From Candidatus Omnitrophota bacterium (GTDB lineage Bacteria > Omnitrophota > Gorgyraeia > JAFGGP01), in the NCBI GenBank assembly GCA_016930485.1, contig JAFGGP010000051.1, positions 1-56,984 on the forward strand: a DNA stretch of 56,984 nucleotides, in the 5' to 3' direction. The notes under the pieces are model-generated. The model was not told the origin of the DNA. It searched no databases and saw only the letters and a program-made list of their open reading frames with translations. This document shows positions 3,159 to 49,847 of the stretch, one piece after another (the first letter of the stretch is position 1; every line of letters starts with the position of its first letter). The translations under genes were made by a program, and so were the position numbers.

Positions 3159-4018
3159 CTAGCCGTCCCCGCCTCTTTGTAATACCTCCAAGACCCTTAC
3201 AACCTGCCGCATCTGCGACACATCGTGAACGCGGACAATGCGTGCCCCCTTGATCACGGCAAAGGAAATGGCAGCGGCCGTGCCAAATATCCTTTGATCT
3301 ACTTCCAGGCCAAGTATCTCTCCTATAAATGATTTGCGCGAAAGCCCTGTTACTACCGGCCTTCCGAAAACATGAAATTCGTCAAGCCGGTTCAGAAGAA
3401 TGGCCGTGTGTTTCAGGCGCTTGGCAAATCCTATGCCCGGATCAATCGCCAGAGATTCCGGTGAAATGCCTGCCTTCTGAGCCGCCTGCAAGCGCTCAGT
3501 AAGTTCATATATAACATCGCTGACTACGTCTCCGTATACCGCTTCTTCCTGCATAGTCTGAGGCGTACCCCGCATATGCATAACGATGCAGCCACAGGCA
3601 GACTCCTTCACAACCTCGAGCATTCCCGGGTCTCGAACCAGACCGCTGACGTCATTAACAATATGCGCCCCGTGCTCAATGGCCTGGCGGGCCACCACCG
3701 CCTTTGTCGTATCTATCGAAATCGGCACGGAGACCGCATGGGAAAGCTCTGAGACAACCGGTATGGTCCTCTCAAGTTCTTCCGCGGCACTTACCGCACA
3801 GGCACCAGGGCGCGTAGATTCCCCGCCGATATCGATAATATCGGCCCCTTCCTCAACCATCTCCAACGCCCTCTTAACGGCCTCCTCCCTGCCCTGGTAT
3901 TTCCCCCCGTCACTGAATGAATCAGGGGTAACGTTAAGTACCCCCATGATCAGCACCTTTTTGGATACGTCGAGTACCCTATCCGTCAGCCTCCAGATAT
4001 GTGCCGTTTTGGTATAAT

Positions 4019-6003: not shown

Positions 6004-7050
6004 CTACCTCGCACCGGGTATTGAGGCACGCTGTGCCTTTTTATGAAATACAAGCCGTTTCTCCTGTTTGCTAACCGCTATTCCGCCCGGAAGGTCGACG
6101 ACGGACAAACCGGGCCGCTCTGCGATGAGGGTTTCCACCTCTTCAAGATGACGTGATGTAATGCGTTTTAGATCTCCCTTTAACCGTTCGATCCCCATGC
6201 GCACGATATACCTCCGCAGGGCCGGGGTAATTTTTCTCATCCGATCACAATCCAGTGCAAAAGAGTCTCTACCCGGGCAGGCATCGGGCAGTTCTACGGT
6301 TTTCATCTTTCGCCGAGCGTGCTTTGCTATAAAATCAAGGTCGGCCCGCACAGTATCGGCCATATTCGCCAAGAGATCTTTAATGTTCGGATTAAACTCC
6401 GTCTCAAGGAGCGGAAGAACGCGATGGCGGACTTTATTCCGGGTAAATTCGGTGCCGAAATTAGTTATATCGGTTCGATATGCTATGTGCCCGGCAGCAA
6501 GAAACCGCTCTACGGTATCTTTTCTCGTCTTTAAAAGAGGCCGTATGATATAGATGCCATGAGGAGAGCACTCCCGTACCGGAGCCATCCCGCACAAGCC
6601 CTGTATTCCCGCGCCCCTCACCAGGCGCATAATCACTGTTTCGGCCTGGTCATCCAGTGTGTGTCCTAAGGCGATCTTGGTCGCGTTATGGATGCGGGCA
6701 CAATCGGTAAAAAAGGCAAGTCGTCTCTTTCGCGCCACATCCTCCAGCGACCCTTTCGTCTGTCTGTACAGAACGGCTATGTTTTCCTTCCGGCAAAAAA
6801 ACGGAACCTCACATTTTCGTGCAAGGTCTTCTACAAACGCGGCGTCCTCACCGGAATCACCGCGCAACATATGATCGAAATGCGCGACAGCGAGGCTAAA
6901 GGGGATATGCGCTCTTATATTCAGTAAGGCAAAAAGAAGGGCGACCGAATCAGGACCTCCGGAGACACCGGCAATAACCGTGTCTGTCGGCGTCAACATA
7001 TTGTGTCTTACCACAGTTGCTGACACTTCCCCATAAAAGGTGGTCTGCAT
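6004..7050 (-). CDS. tilS: tRNA(Ile)-lysidine synthetase
   Basis: SGGPDS PP-loop, AHFDH, GHTLDDQAET, RNKVR; ATG at 7050 chosen for its GAGAGGAG RBS (track ORF starts at 7074). Confidence 0.95.
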   Translation of the reverse strand: MQTTFYGEVSATVVRHNMLTPTDTVIAGVSGGPDSVALLFALLNIRAHIPFSLAVAHFDHMLRGDSGEDAAFVEDLARKCEVPFFCRKENIAVLYRQTKGSLEDVARKRRLAFFTDCARIHNATKIALGHTLDDQAETVIMRLVRGAGIQGLCGMAPVRECSPHGIYIIRPLLKTRKDTVERFLAAGHIAYRTDITNFGTEFTRNKVRHRVLPLLETEFNPNIKDLLANMADTVRADLDFIAKHARRKMKTVELPDACPGRDSFALDCDRMRKITPALRRYIVRMGIERLKGDLKRITSRHLEEVETLIAERPGLSVVDLPGGIAVSKQEKRLVFHKKAQRASIPGAR

Positions 7051-39904: not shown

Positions 39905-40273
39905 ATCGTCTTTGTCTATTGAGGGTGAATAACGTAACGCTATGTATGGAGTGTCTGCGTGCTTATTATATACTGTTTTTTAAAAAGAGGTATTGAAAAA
40001 TATATAGTTACGATAAAATATGTGCACCCACATGCAGCGCCCCTTTTTCTCATCGAACCACAAATAAGCGCGCAAGACCTGCAGGCAACAGGTACCTTGT
40101 GCTTATTTTGTTAATATAGGGCCTTCAACCTCTGCATTGCTCTTAGGTGCAGGAAGACCGCCGGAGGGACGTTCTCTGATAAGTTTTAACTCATTTATTT
40201 ATAGCACGTTAAGATAGATATATGCGCGGCCTGACCTCTCCTTTAATGCGGTATGGCGCGTATGTCATTATTC

Positions 40274-40311
40274 AAAAAAATGTCCGAGAGCCATTTCTTG
40301 ATCTCTCAGAC
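40274..40311 (-). terminator. Intrinsic terminator after miaB
   Basis: 9-bp stem GTCTGAGAG/CTCTCGGAC (one G:U) followed by A-T7 on the minus strand. Confidence 0.6.
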
Positions 40312-40331
40312 GGTTGTTAGAACCGTGGTTC

Positions 40332-41648
40332 TCAAAATGCACGGTGCGCGCGGCCGGTCAATGTGAAATCGCCCTGCCCGGTAATCTCTACCGGGATATA
40401 CTCACCGATACAGTTTCCGTTTGCCGCAAAGACCACCTTCTTGTGGGCGCGGCTCCTCCCCATGACCTCTCCCCTGCTTTTTTTTGCCGGTGTCTCGACG
40501 AGCACCTCAAGGGTGGTGCCGATAAGGCACTGGTTATTGGCCGCGGTTATCTCTTTCTGGAGGCTAAGAAGGATTTGATTTCTCTCTTCCTTTACCTTTT
40601 TTGGGACGTCATCCGTCAAAGCGGCCGCTTTCGTTTTCTCACGCGGCGAATACTTGAAGATAAAGCTGTCATCGAATTGGATTTTTTTCATCACGTTCAC
40701 GGTCGCCTGAAAATCCTCCTCTGACTCACCCGGGAACCCAACGATAACATCCGTCGTCAGACTGCCGGCAGGGATATTCTCTTTAAAGGAGCGCGCGATA
40801 TCAAGAAAGTGTCCGACTGCATAGCCCCGTCCCATCGTCTCCAGTATTCTGTCCGAACCCGACTGAATCGGCAGGTGCAGGTGCTCGCACACGCTCTCGA
40901 GGTCGCGCATGGCACTGATGAGGTCGGGCGAGATATCCTTTGGGTGAGACGTGAGAAAGCGGATTCTTTTTTTATAGGGCAGGCTGTCCAACCTCTCCAA
41001 AAGACGTGCTATAGTGATGCCGTCTGCCAAATTCTTCCCGTAGGAATTAACATTCTGGCCAAGGAGGGTTATCTCCTTTACCCCGTTATCTAAAAGCTGG
41101 GCCACCTCGTTTACAATATCGGTGACCTCACGGCTGCGTTCCCTGCCCCTGACATAGGGTACCACGCAGTACGTACAGAAGTTGTCGCACCCGCGCATAA
41201 TCGCGACATACGCCTTGAGTCTCTTTTTCTGTCCCGTGACACTCTTCCCTGCTCTCCCGTCTAGCTCGCAGGCGATAACCGGCCCGCGCCCCCCCCTGAT
41301 CTCTTCAACAAAGGCAGGGATATCCCACATCCGGTCAGGGCCACAGATGAGGTCGACAAACGGTGCCTTCTCAAGAAGGGCCTCGCCATAGTTCTGGGCC
41401 ATGCATCCGATAATGCCGATTATTTTTTCAGGGTGTTTCTCTTTAAGGGGACGCAAGGCCATAACATTGCCGAAGGCACGCTCCTCGGCGTGTGCCCTGA
41501 CACTGCAGGTATTAAAGAGGATGATATCGGCCTCATCTGGGGTGCCGGCCGGCATATATCCCGCCTTCCCCAGCATCGCCTCCACTATCTCTGAGTCGTA
41601 GGCGTTCATCTGACAGCCAAAAACTTTCAGGTAAACTTTTTTATGCAT
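40332..41648 (-). CDS. miaB: tRNA-2-methylthio-N6-dimethylallyladenosine synthase
   Basis: FGCQMN, NTCSVR, GCMAQ, radical SAM GCDNFCTYC, LLGQNVNSYG, C-terminal TRAM. Confidence 0.95.
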   Translation of the reverse strand: MHKKVYLKVFGCQMNAYDSEIVEAMLGKAGYMPAGTPDEADIILFNTCSVRAHAEERAFGNVMALRPLKEKHPEKIIGIIGCMAQNYGEALLEKAPFVDLICGPDRMWDIPAFVEEIRGGRGPVIACELDGRAGKSVTGQKKRLKAYVAIMRGCDNFCTYCVVPYVRGRERSREVTDIVNEVAQLLDNGVKEITLLGQNVNSYGKNLADGITIARLLERLDSLPYKKRIRFLTSHPKDISPDLISAMRDLESVCEHLHLPIQSGSDRILETMGRGYAVGHFLDIARSFKENIPAGSLTTDVIVGFPGESEEDFQATVNVMKKIQFDDSFIFKYSPREKTKAAALTDDVPKKVKEERNQILLSLQKEITAANNQCLIGTTLEVLVETPAKKSRGEVMGRSRAHKKVVFAANGNCIGEYIPVEITGQGDFTLTGRAHRAF

Positions 41649-41651
41649 TTT

Positions 41652-42134
41652 TTATTCCAATTTTACTCGCTTTGGTAGTTTTCCGCTTTTAAAATGCTTA
41701 TCCAGCCAACCATTTTTCACATTCTCCCTTGAGTCAAAATGTGAAATATAGGGTTTAATATCCAACAGGGGTGTGCCATCTAATATATCAACTTCTGAAA
41801 AAGTAATTATATTTTTCTCAAGCTTCACTAACTTCACAATAGAAATACCAATATGATTTGGCCTATGGGGGCTTCTTATGGCAAATATACCGTGCGTTTC
41901 ATCTTCAAGGAAGGGTTTGCTAATAAGCGTCTCCTTTGTAGATCTATCAAAATAATAGATTAGAATAATATGCGAAAACTCTTTAATATCTTTAAGACCC
42001 TGTTGGTATTCTAGAAATACCTCCGTCTGCCCTGTAATGTCTTTTTCAAACTTACCCTGAATAGGTATGCCTTTTGGTTCTTTATATGGCGTATGAATTA
42101 TACCTATGGGTTTTATTCTAATGTCGTTTTTCAT
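41652..42134 (-). CDS. tsaA: TsaA/TrmO-family tRNA methyltransferase
   Basis: PIGIIHTPY, GIFAIRSPHRPNHIG, DGTPLLDIKPY. Confidence 0.9.
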   Translation of the reverse strand: MKNDIRIKPIGIIHTPYKEPKGIPIQGKFEKDITGQTEVFLEYQQGLKDIKEFSHIILIYYFDRSTKETLISKPFLEDETHGIFAIRSPHRPNHIGISIVKLVKLEKNIITFSEVDILDGTPLLDIKPYISHFDSRENVKNGWLDKHFKSGKLPKRVKLE

Positions 42135-42135
42135 A

Positions 42136-42456
42136 TTAGAACGTCACAACCTTATCAGTTTCCTTAATGATATCGTACATATCCTTCATAGTAGAAATCG
42201 GGCACATATTCGATTCTTCTTGCTCTCTCGATTTCATACAGCTTCCGCAAGCATAGATTTTTCCACTTGACTGTATAAACTGTGCAGCCTGATCAACAGT
42301 GTTAAACTTCTCTGTGCTGACCTTCTGATACTCAACACCTTTGCTCATGAAAAATACCCTAACCTCGTCACCCTGCCCGAGAGCGAAATTGCCATAACGC
42401 AAAGCGTTCCAGCAGGTCTCAGCGTCGTTGCTTGAGATAACGATTCCTATTTTCAT
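42136..42456 (-). CDS. DsrE-family protein
   Basis: 106 aa; WNALR, V-x-VF-x-M-x-x-GV, ACGSC, KVVTF. Confidence 0.8.
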   Translation of the reverse strand: MKIGIVISSNDAETCWNALRYGNFALGQGDEVRVFFMSKGVEYQKVSTEKFNTVDQAAQFIQSSGKIYACGSCMKSREQEESNMCPISTMKDMYDIIKETDKVVTF

Positions 42457-42473
42457 GTTACCCCCTTTTTTAT

Positions 42474-43274
42474 CTAAACATTATTTTTGTTAAGAAAAAT
42501 ATCGCTCCGCAGTATCCCATATTTTGTAAAACATGCACGTGATGTCATTAAAATTGTCAAAAGAACACTTATTATCGTACTCACGACAATACTGATCATG
42601 ATCATTATCTGATACTTAATAGCGACCTCCGGGCTTGCTCCGCCAAGAATAACCCCGGTCATCATGCCGGGAAGCGCCACAATTCCTATGGTAGCCATCG
42701 AGGCAATCGTTGGTTTCAGCGCAAGGCGGATGCTTTCTTTCATGTACGGCCGCGCGGCTTCATGACAAGTGGCTCCCAGCGAAAGTACATAAAGATACTT
42801 TTTCGCGTCTTTCCAGAGACTTTTATAGAAAGTGTCAATACCCACAATATTGCCTCTTAAAGAATTACCCAACAGCATTCCGCCAAGGACGATCAAATAT
42901 CTGGCATCAAAAATATGATCAAGCCGTATGACAAATATATTGACGTAAAAGATAACCGCGAATGTTGCAAAAGCGAACGACACAAAAACCGGTACAAGGA
43001 TTTTACCCGGCTTCATCGACGACCCGCGAATGGCTGAAAAAACCGCGACCAGTATCATCACAACAAGCCACAAAAAATTGATGAGCGCGTTATTCCATAA
43101 AAACAGATATTTCAAGAAAATGCCGATAAGAACAAGCTGAATAGTCATTCTTCCCGCGGAAGTCAAAAGTGGCTTTATAAGGCCAAGGCGATAAACCCAG
43201 CTTAAAATAACCGGCACTGCCAGCAATAAAAACACTAATAAAAGTGAATAAACAGAAATGTCTATTGTTTCCAC
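42474..43274 (-). CDS. ABC transporter permease, UPF0014/FetB-like
   Basis: RMTIQLVLIG, GMLLGNS, GIVALPGMMTGVILGG. Confidence 0.85.
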   Translation of the reverse strand: METIDISVYSLLLVFLLLAVPVILSWVYRLGLIKPLLTSAGRMTIQLVLIGIFLKYLFLWNNALINFLWLVVMILVAVFSAIRGSSMKPGKILVPVFVSFAFATFAVIFYVNIFVIRLDHIFDARYLIVLGGMLLGNSLRGNIVGIDTFYKSLWKDAKKYLYVLSLGATCHEAARPYMKESIRLALKPTIASMATIGIVALPGMMTGVILGGASPEVAIKYQIMIMISIVVSTIISVLLTILMTSRACFTKYGILRSDIFLNKNNV

Positions 43275-43900
43275 GCTTTTTTCTCCAGATCAAAAACTTT
43301 CACATTAGGATTATCCAGCCATACAGCGTCATGCGAGATGCTAACAACCGTCCAGTCTTCACGCCCTATAAAAAAATCAGCGGTCTTTTTCTTGAGATTT
43401 TTATCCAACGCCGATGTAACCTCATCCAGAAGGAAAACTCTCCGACTCAATAAAACTGAAACTATAATAGCGACCCTCTGTCTTTCGCCGCCTGAGAGTG
43501 CAGAAATATCTTTATCAAGCAGATCATGACTTAATTCAAAAAAATCCATTAATTCGTTGACCCTTTCCTCACCGAAATTCAAAGAATGATTCGATTTTAT
43601 CCCGGCAACAAAAGAAAACCAATCCGACACTTTATAATCACCGATACTGACATCTTGATCGACAAACGCTACATTTTGTCTCACGTGCCAGATCGTGTGT
43701 TCATCAACAGGTGCCCCATCGAAAAGCACTTTCCCGCTTTTAGGCTGAATAAACCCAAGAATAAGTCCAAAAAGTGAGGACTTTCCAAGGCCGGATTTTC
43801 CCAAAAGAACAACCTTCTCACCTTTAACAATCTCAAGGGAGAAATCGTTAAAAATCGCCCTATCGTCAAAATCTAATTTTATTTTGTTATATTTGATCAT
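43262..43900 (-). CDS. ABC transporter ATP-binding protein, FetA-like
   Basis: GKSGLGKS, LSGGERQR, LLDEVTSALD. Confidence 0.9.
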   Translation of the reverse strand: MIKYNKIKLDFDDRAIFNDFSLEIVKGEKVVLLGKSGLGKSSLFGLILGFIQPKSGKVLFDGAPVDEHTIWHVRQNVAFVDQDVSIGDYKVSDWFSFVAGIKSNHSLNFGEERVNELMDFFELSHDLLDKDISALSGGERQRVAIIVSVLLSRRVFLLDEVTSALDKNLKKKTADFFIGREDWTVVSISHDAVWLDNPNVKVFDLEKKAWKQ

Positions 43901-44169
43901 AATAAGAACTCACATAATTCGTCTAGCAAGCTATTTTGTAACACATTGATTTATAATGAGTTATATGCTACATAATATTGCTGAGATAACCAATGATGCT
44001 CGTATAATACTGCGTCCATCGGTCAGCTGAATGTCCTCATATAAAGACGTTTTGATATCATGCCTGCCCTCCCCGTCTTAGATTTCGCAGAAATCTGGGG
44101 AGGATCCGAGCCGTCTCGTCCTGAGAGACTGCTTGTCAGCGTTTACCCCGCATGTCTTGACCTGCACAG

Positions 44170-44661
44170 TCATCCCCGAAGCAGCATGAGCAATAAAACC
44201 GAGGTTAAAAAAATAACTGTGGATATACGCCATTTTTTATAATAGGCAAGGCCTTCCTCAGTCAATATCTCTTTCGATGGCATTGGAATTCTTCTTATGT
44301 TTTTAGCATGGCCTATTTCTTTGAATTTTTCTTCCGATATGCAATTCCTGACTTTTGCTTGACAGTGAAGGCCGTAGGCAAAACTCGAGGCGGTTAAAAG
44401 TGTTAAAGGTAATGAAGCTGAATTAAGCGCCGCCCATTTCTGCAATAGTTCTTTTCCACCTGTAAAGACAATAAGAATTCCAAGGATAACAAACATTCCT
44501 ATAAAAGATACGATAAATATCCCGGAGCGATTATATTTTTTATAGTAGGCTTCTTTATCTTCCTTTGCCTCTTTTAAAAACCTAAAAACCAAAAATAAAG
44601 TCGTTGGAAAAATAATAACGATTAAAAAAAGCGTAAATATGACAGCTAGTTTATCGGCCAT
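44170..44661 (-). CDS. Hypothetical membrane protein
   Basis: 163-aa ORF with 3-4 hydrophobic segments and a GGAGG RBS; AT-rich. Confidence 0.65.
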   Translation of the reverse strand: MADKLAVIFTLFLIVIIFPTTLFLVFRFLKEAKEDKEAYYKKYNRSGIFIVSFIGMFVILGILIVFTGGKELLQKWAALNSASLPLTLLTASSFAYGLHCQAKVRNCISEEKFKEIGHAKNIRRIPMPSKEILTEEGLAYYKKWRISTVIFLTSVLLLMLLRG

Positions 44662-44682
44662 TTTCCCTCCTTTTATCTTTCT

Positions 44683-45444
44683 TCATTTCTCCGCTACAAC
44701 CAGCATCTCGAAATCCTCTGGAGTCAGTTTATCCTTCCTTGAGTATGCCCCCAATTTGACCCCAAAAATTTCTATTTTCTTATACCCCAGTGTTTTCAAA
44801 AGCCATCTTATCTCACTCGGCACGTAATACCGTTCATTGCATTTTAGTTCTTTTTTATTGCCTAAATCATCTTCAAACACAACAGTATTATAATCACGGA
44901 ACGTCATCAGATCAAAGGAGCAATCCTTGCACTGAGACTGCCCTTCTTTCTGTGCCGACTCATAAAATTCTTTAACCGAATGGAACAGCGGAAACAATCC
45001 GTTTAATGCGGTGAAAATGAGCTTGCCTTTATCTTTCAGTGCTTTTGTTACGTTTTTGAGTATCTCAAAGTTCATCTCGTCCGTTTCCATAAGAGAAAAA
45101 CCGCCTTCACAGAGCATGATCGCCAAATCAAACTCACCTTCAAACGGAAGATTCCGGGCGTCTTGTGTTTGGAAATCGATCGCCAACCCGGCTTCTTGTG
45201 CTTTTTCTTTTGCCCTTTTGATCTGATTATCGGATAAATCAACACCAGTTACGCTATATCCCCTTTTCGTTAATTCAATCGCGTGACGGCCGGTACCGCA
45301 ACCGATATCTAGTATCTCCAGGGAGTTATCCTGCGTTATTTCTTGTTCAATAAAATCGCATTCTCCCAGAGTCCCTTGAACAAAACACTCCTGATCATAC
45401 TTCTTCGCATAACTTTCAAATAATGCCTCATACCATTGTTTCAT
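44683..45444 (-). CDS. Class I SAM-dependent methyltransferase
   Basis: ILDIGCGTGRH, GVDLS; GGAAGGAG RBS before ATG 45444. Confidence 0.9.
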   Translation of the reverse strand: MKQWYEALFESYAKKYDQECFVQGTLGECDFIEQEITQDNSLEILDIGCGTGRHAIELTKRGYSVTGVDLSDNQIKRAKEKAQEAGLAIDFQTQDARNLPFEGEFDLAIMLCEGGFSLMETDEMNFEILKNVTKALKDKGKLIFTALNGLFPLFHSVKEFYESAQKEGQSQCKDCSFDLMTFRDYNTVVFEDDLGNKKELKCNERYYVPSEIRWLLKTLGYKKIEIFGVKLGAYSRKDKLTPEDFEMLVVAEK

Positions 45445-45542
45445 TGTTATCTCCTTCCATTTAGCAAAAATAATGCAGATAGTTGGCAATGGTTGTTAAT
45501 GGTTCACCTATCTGCTAACCAAAACTGCGAAAGTAAAATTTT

Positions 45543-46961
45543 TCAAATATCTTCCTCGCATACCCATAACACTACCTTATGTTCATTATACTTATTTTTA
45601 TACTGTCTCTGGAGTAATGTCTCTTGCATTTTTTCATAATCGAATTTATCTTTATCGGTATATTTCACAATGCAAACGAAACGTGGCAACTCTCTTTTAA
45701 CAAAAATGTCAGGTTCCTTATTAGAGAAAACGAGTGTTTCGATACCAGAATAAAAACTGACAGGAGAAACTGTGTTCGTATACAGAATGTCTTTCGGCGA
45801 AGCCATCTTCGCAATCTGCATGCCAGCCTGATATGGCCCCGGAAATCTAAAAATATGTAACTTAGCGAAATAACCCAAACCGAATAACACAAACGATGCG
45901 GTCAGAATAATCTGCCACTGTTTTTTGAGTCGCCCGACAACCAAAGCGGCAATCAATGCCATCGCGGGAGTCAGATATTGCAGTGTCCAAACGTGGATAT
46001 AAGCTGCGTGAGGGGTCATGAGGGGCAATGCGGCACCAAATAGCAATAGCATACGTGCTACCAGATTGACCTCGTCGGTCATTCGAATCTTTTTTTTGCG
46101 CACCATATGTATCCATAATGCCAAACACAGAACGCCGCAGGGAGTAAAATTTAAAATAACATTTTTTATTAACGTCCGATAGAATCCGATATGTAATAGA
46201 AGAGAACGGTGCTGGCAGTGATAGAAAAATCCGCTTAACTGTCTGTTGAGTGAAAACGGGACAGTTTTAATAAAAAATAAAAAAATGCCGACAATAGTTA
46301 AAACTGCCAAAAGCATTAATCCGGCATAAGCGGCAGCGCCTTTCTTTTTATAACGAATATATAACGCCGGGGACAACAAAAACAAAACAAACGGCCAATC
46401 GCTCAATACGCCTAAGACGGAAATAAAGGCGAGCATAAGGGCGAAAAACAGTTTCCCGGTGTGAATGAATTGTACAAATAGATAGAGGAAAACTATAGAT
46501 AGACCAAGAGTAATTGCTTCATAATTAACAATACGTCCATAATAATTGAACATCGGCATAAGAGACATAAAAAACATGCTTAATAAAGCGGTTTTTCTGT
46601 CGGCAATGCCTTTGACCAATAAAAAGAAAAATATGAGGCCCGATAATGAAAAAACGATCGGGATCAGGCGGGCGCTCCATTCATGAATGCCAAAAAATTT
46701 AAAAGATAACGCTAAGAGGAGCGGCACAAGAGGCGGGTGCAAAATATAATAATTTGGTCTACCGCCCAACATATCCATTATCGGCAATCCCCTGCTTATT
46801 TTGAGACCATATAAAAGATGGTGTTTCGCAAAAAGTTCAAGAATCCCCACTTCCCAGGCTTTAACATATGGCAAAAATAAACCCCAACATAGGAGGACGC
46901 CCGCCAGAATCGTGATAGCGCCTGCGATTTTTATCTCTTGGGTCAGAACGTATTTTTTCAT
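45543..46961 (-). CDS. ArnT/PMT-like (GT-C) membrane glycosyltransferase
   Basis: HPPL, EWSARL, multiple TMs, YEA, LSDWP. Confidence 0.8.
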   Translation of the reverse strand: MKKYVLTQEIKIAGAITILAGVLLCWGLFLPYVKAWEVGILELFAKHHLLYGLKISRGLPIMDMLGGRPNYYILHPPLVPLLLALSFKFFGIHEWSARLIPIVFSLSGLIFFFLLVKGIADRKTALLSMFFMSLMPMFNYYGRIVNYEAITLGLSIVFLYLFVQFIHTGKLFFALMLAFISVLGVLSDWPFVLFLLSPALYIRYKKKGAAAYAGLMLLAVLTIVGIFLFFIKTVPFSLNRQLSGFFYHCQHRSLLLHIGFYRTLIKNVILNFTPCGVLCLALWIHMVRKKKIRMTDEVNLVARMLLLFGAALPLMTPHAAYIHVWTLQYLTPAMALIAALVVGRLKKQWQIILTASFVLFGLGYFAKLHIFRFPGPYQAGMQIAKMASPKDILYTNTVSPVSFYSGIETLVFSNKEPDIFVKRELPRFVCIVKYTDKDKFDYEKMQETLLQRQYKNKYNEHKVVLWVCEEDI

Positions 46962-47132
46962 TTCGAATACCGGCCCTTCACACTGCAGGTATCAAAAAAG
47001 ATAACGTCTACCTCTTGAGGCTTGGACGCAACCATATACCCCGCCTCTCCCACCAGTATCACCTCAACTATCTCTGAGTCGCGGCTGTTTATTTGACATC
47101 CAAATGTTTTTGATAAAACGTTTGGTTGTCAC
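46958..47132 (-). pseudogene. miaB: Degenerate miaB 5' fragment
   Basis: VTTKRFIK, a +1 shift in an A5 run, then TFGCQINSRDSEIVEVILVGEAGYMVASKPQEVDVIFFDTCSVKGRYSK*; aligns to the MiaB N-terminus; exact blocks 47067-47081=41584-41598 and 46980-46992=41500-41512. Confidence 0.88.
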
Positions 47133-47169
47133 GTCTTCACCGCCCTATACCCCTGGCAAATCACTCCCC

Positions 47170-47304
47170 TTACTTCTTATCCTCGCACTTGTTGCAGAGC
47201 TCGGGATCCTTGGCCGACGGGCGCACGCCGAATAGCCGTGTTGCAATCAACCGGTAGAGGATCCCCTCAAGCGGAACCCTGCATTTCTTGCATCGCCTCG
47301 TCAT
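47170..47304 (-). CDS. 44-aa small protein with two CxxC motifs (not in ORF track)
   Basis: MTRRCKKCRVPLEGILYRLIATRLFGVRPSAKDPELCNKCEDKK*; GGAGG RBS; co-directional between the GIY-YIG gene and the miaB fragment. Confidence 0.75.
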   Translation of the reverse strand: MTRRCKKCRVPLEGILYRLIATRLFGVRPSAKDPELCNKCEDKK

Positions 47305-47335
47305 AACCCCTCCGTCCTCTTATGGATGTCACGTT

Positions 47336-47644
47336 CTACTTCCCCGCCAGCGCCAATACCTTATCAAACCTCATCCCGTTAATCAATTTTTCCTTCTCTA
47401 GCCTCGTCAGCCGCTTTATCCTGTGTTCGGCACTCATCGCATAATGCAAATACCTATATTCCTTATACCAGACCAAGCAAACCGGCCCCTTTCCTCGCAC
47501 GTACTTCGCGCCGCGTTTGCCCGCGTTATGTTCCCTGAGGCGCCTCTCGAGGTTAGCTGTATAGCCGGCGTAATAGGTGCCGTTCTTGCATGTTACCAGA
47601 TACACACAATAATGATTCCGACGCCTGATCTTCCTTTTCATCAA
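47336..47644 (-). CDS. GIY-YIG nuclease, UPF0213 (YazA/YhbQ-like)
   Basis: VYLVTC-x-x-GTYYAGYT, RRLREHNAG, GAKY, AMSAEHRIK. Confidence 0.9.
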   Translation of the reverse strand: MMKRKIRRRNHYCVYLVTCKNGTYYAGYTANLERRLREHNAGKRGAKYVRGKGPVCLVWYKEYRYLHYAMSAEHRIKRLTRLEKEKLINGMRFDKVLALAGK

Positions 47645-48153
47645 AAGAGTCGCTGTTCTTTATCAAATCCTGGATATCTTCTGGTAAACCAAACATATAA
47701 AATAGCCGCGGGGATAAAAAACAATATGCATAACCGATACATCATAGCCGCCGAAACTAATCCATACAACGGATTAATCTTTAAGGGGTAAAACGGTTGG
47801 ATATCAGTGTATATTGGCGCATCACATAGGACATGCAGACATCCACCGGCCGCGCCTGAAAGAATGTCCGCCTTTAGTGAAGGAGAATAGGGCAATCGCA
47901 AAAAACGCATTAATCTTCCTAACGGTTGCCTCAATGCATAAGCCATGCCTCCCCATAACGAACCCACGATAAAACTACCTATAAACGTATGTACATAGCC
48001 GTGTACTGGATAATGTACATTAAAAAGCATAACAAGCAAAGGTTCGATATCGATTATGATATTGGCTAAAATAAAAGTTGGGACATCAAGTTTTCTCTGT
48101 AGCGGCAGCGCTACACACGCATGAACCCCGACATGAAATGGTGTAAACGGCAT
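47641..48153 (-). CDS. Membrane-bound metal-dependent hydrolase-like protein
   Basis: MPFTPFH, DIEP, H-x-x-x-HT, HVLCD, QPFYP. Confidence 0.7.
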   Translation of the reverse strand: MPFTPFHVGVHACVALPLQRKLDVPTFILANIIIDIEPLLVMLFNVHYPVHGYVHTFIGSFIVGSLWGGMAYALRQPLGRLMRFLRLPYSPSLKADILSGAAGGCLHVLCDAPIYTDIQPFYPLKINPLYGLVSAAMMYRLCILFFIPAAILYVWFTRRYPGFDKEQRLF

Positions 48154-48308
48154 AACCTGTGTACCCCTGATGATGGGTTATACGGTCGTCACGTCGCCGT
48201 ATTATTTCGTCACTACGCAATAATGAAACTGCATTAGTCCGCCTGGCGCCCGACAACACTGGTTGCATCCTGCTGCCGGTCAGCCAAAAGAGCTCAAAAA
48301 AATAGACG

Positions 48309-49847
48309 TTATATTAATAATCCCCTGCCGATACGGCGGTCTGTCGGCACGGCGGGATTGCACGCTTTTTCAGGTGTGGTCTTCTGGGAAAGCGATGTGT
48401 GAAGAGTGCCCAGCTTTTGCGTTCCGCGCCTGAAAAGTGTACGATATACATAGGGAAAATAATACCTGTTTATTTTCATAGGGGTTATTTTTGTTGAAAA
48501 AACCAGCCCTTTTAATAGTACATGAATAAACCTGTACATATTTTTGAGTGGCAGTTTGATTAAGACAAACATGCACTTCTTTAAAAACGAATATCGAACA
48601 ATACAATAAAAGAGTGCCTGCAAATTTTCTATTTCTTTTTTTGAGGTAAGCGCCAGACACGTCGTTTCGTGAAAATCTCCTATCTTTTCATAATCCCCGT
48701 CCCATTCTCTGGTCCCCAGCGCCATCGCAGACAACGCTGTGCCGGGATACGGCTGGTAGATCGAAGAATCGACATATGCCGGCTTCCATTTCATGCAGAA
48801 TTCGAGCGATTCCAGATCATTGTGTATGGTGGATGCCGGCAGACCGATCATTATCTCGAATACATAGTTGATCTCATGCCTTGCCAAGTGCCCAACCGCC
48901 GCATCGATTTGCCGGTCGGTAATATTTCTGTTTAATATTTTTTTTCTTATCTCTTCATTTTTGGATTCGATGCCCACCCAGACCGAAATGCATCCCGCCG
49001 CCTTTAACAACGCCGCTGTTTCTGCCGTAATGAGCTCCGGTCTCATATTGCAAATAAAAGGGAGCCCGACACGCTGCGGGTATTGCTGTTGAAATTCAAT
49101 AAGCCAGTCTGTGGAACTGCCAAAGATATCATCTTCAAATTGCACGATATCAAAAGGGCTCTTGCGCCTTTCCTCTTCTATCTCCTCCAGTACGTTATCG
49201 ACTCCTCTCCGTCTCAGTCTCCTGCCCTTGTTTTCATAAATAGAAAAGTACGGTTCATTAAAACAATAGCTACAACTGTACGGGCATCCTCGGGAGGCAA
49301 TAAAATTTCGTATACGGAAATGTCTCACAGACTTATACTCCTTCAGCAGATCCCTGTCGGGAAAGAGGACGGCATCTATAGCATCGATTAATGGCCGCAC
49401 ACCATTTCTGTAAATCTCACCGTCCTCTTTTACCCAAAAATTCTCTGTTTTTCGATAATCTTCCTCTTTTTCTTTTTTATGCAAAAAATCTGCCAGGGCG
49501 CCCTCGCCCTCTCCCCTGCATATGGCGTCAATGCCGTCCTCATTGATAATCTCGGGTGAAAATGTGGCATGCGGCCCCCCAAATACAGAATAGAGATTAC
49601 CAAATTCGTCCTTAAGTCTTTTGTTTAATGCACGATAATAGTGATGAAAGCCCGTTCTTGTGCTGAAAAGAAGCGCCTCCGGATGATACTTTTTTATGCA
49701 TCTCTTGACCCTGCCATAGTCGCACGCATCGACCAATTTTACCTCATGACCGGATTGCTTCAGGCTGGAGGAAAGATACAGGCACCCCAAAGGCATCCTT
49801 CCCACGCTGTCCCTATCCAGTATCTTATTTATAAATAAAACCCTCAT
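48309..49847 (-). CDS. Cobalamin-binding radical SAM protein
   Basis: PLG-x-x-YL-x-S N-terminus, GGPHAT, SRGCPYSCSYC, GIES. Confidence 0.9.
   Translation of the reverse strand: MRVLFINKILDRDSVGRMPLGCLYLSSSLKQSGHEVKLVDACDYGRVKRCIKKYHPEALLFSTRTGFHHYYRALNKRLKDEFGNLYSVFGGPHATFSPEIINEDGIDAICRGEGEGALADFLHKKEKEEDYRKTENFWVKEDGEIYRNGVRPLIDAIDAVLFPDRDLLKEYKSVRHFRIRNFIASRGCPYSCSYCFNEPYFSIYENKGRRLRRRGVDNVLEEIEEERRKSPFDIVQFEDDIFGSSTDWLIEFQQQYPQRVGLPFICNMRPELITAETAALLKAAGCISVWVGIESKNEEIRKKILNRNITDRQIDAAVGHLARHEINYVFEIMIGLPASTIHNDLESLEFCMKWKPAYVDSSIYQPYPGTALSAMALGTREWDGDYEKIGDFHETTCLALTSKKEIENLQALFYCIVRYSFLKKCMFVLIKLPLKNMYRFIHVLLKGLVFSTKITPMKINRYYFPYVYRTLFRRGTQKLGTLHTSLSQKTTPEKACNPAVPTDRRIGRGLLI

Follow-up and report, generated by a model that had tools for sequence, protein, structure and literature searches.

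The DNA analysed here is a contig of 56,984 nucleotides from a Candidatus Omnitrophota bacterium (GenBank assembly GCA_016930485.1, contig JAFGGP010000051.1; hereafter the window). It contains two copies of the start of miaB. A 5.3-kb block of foreign genes sits inside the gene's 5' end, with seven cargo genes, all on the same strand, between the two copies. How did one gene come to have two starts, and which of them is its own? We favour, with moderate confidence, the view that the block is what remains, with no recombinase, of a family of mobile elements and cassettes that a large serine recombinase (LSR) integrates at the first Cys codon of miaB. Members of the family carry at their miaB-proximal end an ATG plus ~11 codons, ending ..TTYGGNTG, which we call the P arm. 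This would fuse in frame with the resident gene, leaving miaB whole and co-transcribed with the cargo, and the native miaB start would be stranded at the far end of the element. In the window, the resident gene would most likely run from Cys12 or Gln13 onwards. Comparison with relatives shows the P arm, the ties of the cargo to LSR elements and the use of this site throughout the class; a second, homology-dependent step and the place of its crossover are inferred. The features that carry the argument are listed below.

40332-41648, minus strand: intact miaB, 438 amino acids, with UPF0004, Radical_SAM and TRAM domains (Pfam)
41614-41651, minus strand: putative element-borne replacement start (P arm), including the 3-nt spacer after the TrmO stop, recognised by its match to the L127 junction
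41584-41598: 15-nt exact block, intact copy (codons 13-18, DSEIV); candidate region of homologous crossover
41500-41512: 13-nt exact repeat, copy in intact miaB (codons 46-50, NTCSV)
46980-46992: 13-nt exact repeat, copy in the stranded fragment; miaB homology ends here
46980-47132, minus strand: stranded miaB 5' pseudo-fragment, with GTG start, codons 1-50, a +1 frameshift and one extra codon
47094-47131, minus strand: leader hairpin in the stranded copy, of the native type

The stranded start of miaB

The stranded fragment was compared with intact miaB and with its paralogues. Positions 46941-47160 (minus strand) match the miaB 5' end at 41500-41621 with 73.6% nucleotide identity over 125 nt (E 1e-13, computed against the whole 1.9-Mb genome). 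The fragment's protein is 60% identical to intact MiaB over 48 amino acids (E 3e-14). Identity to the two paralogous methylthiotransferases of the genome, on contig C27, is only 27-33%. NCBIfam models rank MiaB (TIGR01574, 42.1 bits) above MtaB (24.5) and RimO (23.2). The PF00919 model scores 43 bits, and the UPF0004 signature FGCQxN ... TCSV is present with the first two cluster cysteines. We conclude that the fragment is of the MiaB type, neither RimO nor MtaB.

One frame of the fragment reads QPNVLSKTFGCQINSRDSEIVEVILVGEAGYMVASKPQEVDVIFFDTCSVKG. The +1 frameshift, counted from the GTG at 47132-47130, is an extra A in the A-run at ~47107-47111, and the extra codon is a 3-nt insertion. A sequence-only reading of this DNA had proposed an insertion into the miaB 5' end that stranded a frameshifted start with one extra codon. 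The nucleotide and protein matches, and the reading of the frames, bear this out. It had also reported that homology stops at a 13-nt exact match and that the miaB ATG lies 3 nt from the tsaA stop. Both are seen. The block, ACACTGCAGGTAT, occurs at 41500-41512 and 46980-46992, homology ending immediately beyond it, and the stop of the TrmO/TsaA-like gene precedes the ATG as TAA AAA ATG. A second exact block of 15 nt, ACTATCTCTGAGTCG, at 41584-41598 and 47067-47081, is absent from that reading.

The stranded copy is decaying, since its substitutions include changes at near-invariant MiaB positions (M to I, A to V, L to F and N to D) and GC-to-AT changes are in excess (22 against 9). The two copies in the window are mutual closest nucleotide relatives, at 74% identity compared with 68% or less to 197 loci. 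Between them the ratio of non-synonymous to synonymous divergence (dN/dS) is 0.32, with dS at 0.89. Neither protein trees of the 46-codon pieces nor their protein identity, at 60% to each other and 57-63% to others, is decisive.

Native miaB starts of the same class of bacteria have a 13-14-bp inverted repeat, in which the leader or first codons pair with the K-T-F-G-C-Q codons. This is seen at L010, L078, L079, L069, L002, L062, L080, L034 and L121 (6290-6340). The stranded copy has the same arrangement. Its 5' arm, TGACAACCAAACG, is at 47119-47131 and its 3' arm, CATTTGGATGTCA, containing the K-T-F-G-C-Q codons, is at 47094-47106; 2 of 13 pairs are broken. The repeat occurs neither in the intact window miaB start nor in element-borne starts. 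Compensatory changes affect 5 of 14 pairs, for example Gly GGT/GGA/GGC with ACC/TCC/GCC, a count biased by a sequence set chosen by eye. The conserved hairpin might be part of site recognition, or of a miaB regulation that the elements bypass. Origins in IS200/IS605, integron or Xer systems were considered for it and dropped, no matching recombinase or site features being found. Rfam matched no family within 40200-48300, and matched neither the leader hairpin region nor the conserved P' tail described below.

Composition sets the block apart from its host. Its GC content is 39.6%, compared with 50.1% for the genome, which places it at the 0.6th percentile among 5.3-kb windows. GC content at third codon positions (GC3) is 0.31-0.50 in the island and 0.58 ± 0.065 in the genome's long open reading frames (ORFs). 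Intact miaB is host-like along its full length (0.62-0.68), including codons 1-50 (0.64). Codons 15-50 have a GC3 of 0.73, counted by hand from the codon table, against 0.41 in the island. The fragment has a GC3 of 0.48 overall, made up of 0/10 in codons 1-10 and 0.61 in codons 11-50 (hand count). We rejected the low overall value as proof of foreign origin; it is concentrated in the first 10 codons, and this is common at gene starts.

The replacement start and a recombinase family at miaB

The P arm of the window (41614-41648) reads ATG CAT AAA AAA GTT TAC CTG AAA GTT TTT GGC TG, ending at the TG of Cys12. The P-arm miaB start is MHKKVYLKVFGCQ. Searching GTDB genomes with the TrmO-like protein identified an Omnitrophota metagenome-assembled genome (MAG), L127, that shares the junction DsrE-TrmO-stop-AAA-ATG-miaB. 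The miaB genes of the window and L127 both begin M(H/T)KKVY(L/I)KVFGCQMN. Nucleotide identity between them is 74-87% in the TrmO gene and 79% over miaB codons 1-14, compared with 50% over codons 15-28. The KVFGCQ start is rare; it was found in 1 of 120 homologues, and Val before FGCQ is otherwise absent. Related P arms occur as scars in L121 (3784-3825) and L133 (3330-3365). A short scar of the typical kind, KIYLKNFG|WPMVA, lies 75 nt ahead of DsrE in L127. Judged from these alignments, the first ~12-15 codons of intact miaB are probably element-borne. The sequence-only reading had supposed an incoming replacement start of 46 codons. The idea stands, TrmO and the first ~14 codons being a unit common to L127. 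The length does not, ~12-15 codons being probable.

We examined a sample of 401 genomes, all related to the window genome only at the level of class. LSR homologues (38-90% identical) were present in 48. The LSR gene lies directly upstream of miaB in G007, G019, G025, G028, G032 and G035, and FGCQMN follows within a few tens of bases after the LSR at 10 of 20 loci examined. Wherever its position could be checked, the LSR gene adjoins the miaB start. In G224 the element, of 12.6 kb, is complete. A stranded start, ..TFGC|AAGATGG, opens it, cargo follows, and the last gene encodes a 547-amino-acid LSR with Resolvase, Recombinase and Zn_ribbon_recom domains. The 3' end of this LSR gene overlaps, in another frame, the new miaB start MSVKPSKTQDAHKGLRVYVRTFGCQMN. 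Among the cargo are Vsr and Dcm, a LexA-like repressor, a small serine recombinase, and DUF3854 and DUF3631 proteins.

Scars and restored starts locate the crossover. Typical scars end at ..FG(C/W), in 8 of the 401 genomes and at several further loci. In the eight genomes, the miaB start is cut at ..TFGC and followed by a conserved tail, the P' tail. This consists of ..GTTACA(A/T)ACCGATTTTACAATT, 16 nt, TATAAT, ~65 nt and GGAACCGAACGTAAGTGAAA, after which variable cargo begins. P' tails start with NNNG(A/T)TGG, and comparison of scars with restored starts maps the crossover to the TG of the first Cys codon. Leaders and first codons beside the LSR are nearly identical across different families (L011, L029 and L017; L016 and L024), which fits starts that belong to the element. 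The P' tail is also promoter-like, with TTTACA, 16-17 nt and TATAAT, the ..GGAACCGAACGTAAGTGAAA block lying ~65 nt downstream. It is conserved over eight families with different cargo (L083, L084, L086, L088, L089 and L082; ~1500-1650). The second Cys codon (ACCTGCAG) was considered as a secondary site for the recombinase and dropped, as it has too little similarity to the primary site.

Many stranded miaB starts lie 5' of intact miaB in the class, each with different cargo. A survey for variable cargo at this site, suggested by the sequence-only reading, thus finds cargo and stranded starts recurring class-wide. Another of its suggestions, to look for contiguous GIY-YIG and miaB genes, turned up uninterrupted alleles in G145 and G041, and also in G349. 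That reading had staked the insertion on such alleles existing in relatives, and on the fragment being nearer to miaB than to RimO or MtaB; both hold. At L121, two serial scars precede miaB, one of the P-arm type and one of the native-hairpin type, with differing modules between (3784-3825, 6314-6352, 8846-). This is evidence for a build-up of insertions at the miaB site. The order of these scars differs from a simple serial-insertion prediction.

The cargo of the window, and the genes upstream of the island, are as follows.

41652-42134, minus strand: TrmO/TsaA-like gene (TrmO_N, Pfam), last before the P arm
42136-42456, minus strand: DsrE-like protein (Pfam)
42474-43274, minus strand: FetB-like permease (UPF0014, Pfam)
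43262-43900, minus strand: ABC ATPase (Pfam)
44170-44661, minus strand: 163-amino-acid membrane protein without a Pfam match, assigned to no family
44683-45444, minus strand: class I S-adenosylmethionine (SAM) methyltransferase, a widespread cassette gene; its true start is probably Met16 of the listed ORF
45543-46961, minus strand: PMT_2/ArnT-like glycosyltransferase (Pfam), whose ATG is 18 nt past the end of the stranded fragment
47170-47304, minus strand: host-like upstream flank, 44-amino-acid CxxC ORF, GC3 0.76
47336-47644, minus strand: host-like upstream flank, GIY-YIG gene, GC3 0.66

Several cargo genes have close relatives beside the recombinase. The TrmO-like protein is 70-81% identical in Omnitrophota genomes. 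The DsrE-TrmO pair recurs at L064, L068, L122, L124, L127, L139, L141 and L143, and stands immediately before an intact or decayed LSR at L124, L136 and L122. At L130 the order is FetA (77%), FetB (86%), DsrE and TrmO. The SAM methyltransferase is 75-86% identical at the amino acid level in 78 of the 401 genomes, compared with only ~48% for miaB. In relatives it usually lies just 5' of miaB on the same strand, often with a GIY-YIG gene. In many genomes, miaB-start scars or P' tails stand upstream of it and P arms downstream. We conclude that the cargo and the miaB-proximal end of the island belong to the LSR element family because of the L127 junction, the LSR-adjacent DsrE-TrmO pair and the flanks of the methyltransferase. 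The miaB-side junction is homologous to that of LSR-bearing members in its P arm and crossover position. The target gene is kept whole by island-borne 5' sequence, with the remnant 5' end opposite. For the glycosyltransferase, a donor search found nearest homologues only 46-49% identical, in unrelated contexts.

The methyltransferase shows further peculiarities. Nucleotide identity is only ~74%, indicating old divergence under very strong constraint, and frequent companions are DsrE, TrmO, hemerythrin, TauE and CrcB genes (L033-L061). Right behind its stop (~44662-44687, minus strand), ATGAAGAAAGATAAAAGG resembles the P arm ATGAAAGAAGATAAGAAAAAAG.. that follows the gene elsewhere. The resemblance covers the first six P-arm codons, stopping short of the gene that follows, and may mark an internal scar that was truncated.

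The sequence-only reading had noted that no integrase is present. This is right for the window; relatives, however, carry the cognate LSR family. A Pfam search of the seven island proteins found no integrase domain, Phage_integrase included, and in tblastn the window yielded neither an LSR remnant nor a P' tail. The one LSR that the genome encodes is just 33% identical to the miaB-site recombinase. It has 576 amino acids and abuts a comM/yifB-like gene, in a separate low-GC prophage-like element (C44:35127-45540) that also includes a tyrosine-integrase-like gene (44275-45540).

A small GIY-YIG gene often adjoins miaB (L062, L069, L078, L096 and L097), and in one 517-amino-acid protein (P0011) GIY-YIG is fused to MiaB. 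The neighbouring GIY-YIG evolves like a resident gene (47-58% identity) and adjoins uninterrupted miaB. A role as homing endonuclease is unsupported, the protein being a ~100-amino-acid catalytic domain only.

The left junction and competing explanations

A scar made by the recombinase should end at the Cys codon. The stranded copy reaches codon 50, and where a short scar and P' tail are typical the glycosyltransferase follows directly. Hence, the left junction was apparently not made by the LSR, and the long stranded piece implies a homology-dependent step. Other long stranded pieces end elsewhere, at ~codon 44 in G073 and ~codon 35 in G250. Comparing G250 with G145, of the same genus, the intact N-terminus is of the genus type; the stranded piece and its leader are foreign and G029-like. 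In G073, the sites informative against same-genus G041 read sssssisiisss|iiiiiiisiiiiiiiiiisi. Here, the stranded copy is native to ~codon 19 and the intact copy is native beyond (max-chi2 permutation p = 0.002), with the crossover mapping just past the DSE codons. This pattern is characteristic of a reciprocal single crossover in which the resident gene recombined with incoming DNA bearing a miaB-like 5' segment.

In the window too, the island copy was probably placed by something other than the recombinase itself. In a second step, DNA from a related genome, carrying a cassette array and ending by chance at donor codon 50, would have recombined with the resident miaB 5' end. The route may have been a Campbell-type single crossover or homology-facilitated illegitimate recombination. 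The outcome would be two diverged, possibly mosaic copies of codons 13-50. The crossover may have lain in either exact block, the 13-nt one or the 15-nt one at DSEIV. The sequence-only reading had offered site-specific integration or homology-facilitated recombination as mechanisms. The 13-nt block is probably not a recombinase crossover, and homology-facilitated recombination was probably needed for the left junction.

Several points weigh against a remnant of the LSR family. There is no LSR gene inside the island, and the window has no recombinase, no P' tail and no typical short scar. The link between the window and the LSR family, drawn from sequence comparison, is one of right end and cargo only. 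Among 5.8 billion proteins and the class genomes, the closest miaB was 51% identical, and neither an empty site nor a donor was found. The two copies share only the 15-nt and 13-nt exact blocks, which offers little for RecA-type recombination unless much decay came afterwards. Plain decay of a resident copy that had been duplicated would explain the changes at invariant positions and the GC-to-AT bias just as well. Finally, TrmO abutting the P arm could reflect either cassette design or deletion of an LSR.

A wider interpretation, which we regard as rather doubtful, makes the miaB start an integron-like docking platform run by the LSR. Small modules would consist of a P' tail, one or a few genes and a P arm. 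Most would lack a recombinase and be inserted in trans. Arrays would grow because each P arm encodes a MiaB start and so rebuilds attB, as at L121, G250 and G222, and would be traded between lineages by homologous recombination at the miaB 5' repeats. The window island would be such an array, and the 50-codon stranded piece the footprint of this second route.

We think it unlikely that a circular element bearing miaB codons 1-46 integrated at a 13-nt core, ACACTGCAGGTAT, by site-specific recombination or a single crossover. All 46 first codons of the intact gene would then be incoming, and the entire stranded piece would be the resident start. Homology does stop exactly past the block, both copies have there an unusual AGT Ser codon where relatives use TCN, and the stranded copy has the native-type leader hairpin. 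However, the GC3 of intact codons 15-50 resembles the remaining gene and is unlike the island, and similarity to L127 ends at codon 15. The crossover of the family is at the first Cys codon, the stranded ends in G073 and G250 provide no common core at codon 50, and the island has no integrase.

Still less credible is that the insertion duplicated ~170 nt of the resident miaB 5' region and that the upstream copy then decayed neutrally. The two copies being mutual nearest relatives would agree with this, as would the changes at invariant MiaB positions and the GC-to-AT excess. Differences by codon position are 11/11/20, which by our own chi-square estimate (p ~0.15) is not significantly uneven. 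However, the dN/dS of 0.32 is below the ~0.55 or more that we roughly estimate for one neutral copy. Two broken hairpin pairs of 13 and one frameshift suggest modest decay compared with 26-28% divergence. Moreover, the first 14 codons of the intact gene are of the element's P-arm family, and are not copied from the stranded start.

We give a similarly low probability to the fragment having arrived with the island, as a scar from the donor genome, the resident gene gaining only a new start. G250 offers a parallel, its stranded piece and leader being foreign and its intact N-terminus that of same-genus G145. In the window, however, a second junction would have to fit into the ~40 nt between the host-like CxxC gene and the fragment's leader. 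Codons 11-50 of the fragment are host-like in GC3 (~0.61, hand count), and its nearest relative is the window's own miaB. A chimeric contig is very improbable: the genome is a 57-contig MAG, but both flanks are host-like, so that two switches would be needed, an assembler would not be misled by shared repeats of only 13-15 nt, and the right junction recurs in an independent genome (L127).

Known systems and the wider locus

Integration into protein-coding genes, with an element-borne end and a displaced pseudo-end, is familiar from SXT/R391 in prfC and from e14 or phage 21 in icd. These are complete elements with tyrosine integrases, and icd loses its 3' end. A close likeness to the miaB family in mode of integration is Burkholderia phage JC1 (Bcep22-like), which uses a serine recombinase to integrate into the 5' end of rimO (PMC9144972). 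In both cases a serine recombinase gene lies beside attP, and insertion is in the first codons of a gene of the MiaB methylthiotransferase family. In JC1, as here, an ATG borne by the incoming DNA keeps the gene in frame with an altered N-terminus. JC1 differs in its rimO target and proteobacterial host, and is a complete temperate phage with experimental proof. The window has a miaB target in an uncultivated lineage, its copy lacks the recombinase, and its stranded piece counts 50 codons, not just a few as in JC1.

Islands and prophages with dusA-specific integrases also replace the 5' end of their target and leave a remnant (Farrugia et al. 2015, PMC4482086). The same study names a MiaB-like gene as one of the few tRNA-modification genes hit by mobile elements. 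The likeness extends to the 5' end of a tRNA-modification gene as target, an island-borne replacement, a remnant on the far side and variable cargo. However, dusA islands use a tyrosine integrase family (DAI), and their excision was shown by PCR. The miaB family uses an LSR, with none in the window copy. No Phage_integrase domain was found in the island, and with it no cognate tyrosine integrase of the dusA or prfC type.

Like an integron, the miaB site is one fixed docking site that gathers small, often single-gene modules without their own recombinase, with cargo read toward the resident gene or from the platform. Unlike integron cassettes, each miaB-site module rebuilds the target through the coding P arm at its end, and trans mobilisation is proposed. 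The island has no IntI, attI or attC; modules at this site are bounded by P' tails and coding P arms. The window island is a decayed, fairly ordinary genomic island of a known kind, unusual in its long stranded piece. A literature search for miaB serving as a serine-recombinase site in Omnitrophota returned no paper.

These results account for a pseudogene fragment and a compositional island in the window genome. As read from the sequence, miaB would now be expressed from a foreign start behind foreign genes. They also add to the evidence for a single recombinase family having turned miaB's first Cys codon into a main accessory-gene entry point of a large uncultivated class. The genes that enter include defence genes, toxin-antitoxin pairs, the highly conserved methyltransferase, and DsrE, TrmO and FetAB modules. 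LSRs whose attB is defined and conserved also have a practical side, as tools for genome integration, and the miaB site with its P-arm and P'-tail sequences is by now known in enough detail to be assayed on plasmids.

Two observations concern the surroundings of the locus. A second low-GC3 stretch (47641-49847, minus strand), perhaps acquired as well, lies upstream of the GIY-YIG and CxxC pair; it encodes a 170-amino-acid membrane protein (GC3 0.37) and a radical SAM protein of the B12 type (GC3 0.49). The genes that come after miaB in relatives are a tetratricopeptide repeat-like gene, miaA and hflX. In the window genome, lipopolysaccharide (LPS)-core glycosyltransferase genes follow miaB (window positions 1-39904), and miaA-hflX are on contig C25 (33674-42398), where kdtA, lpxK and further LPS genes precede them in the same orientation. 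Possibly miaB and miaA are separated by a large LPS cluster.

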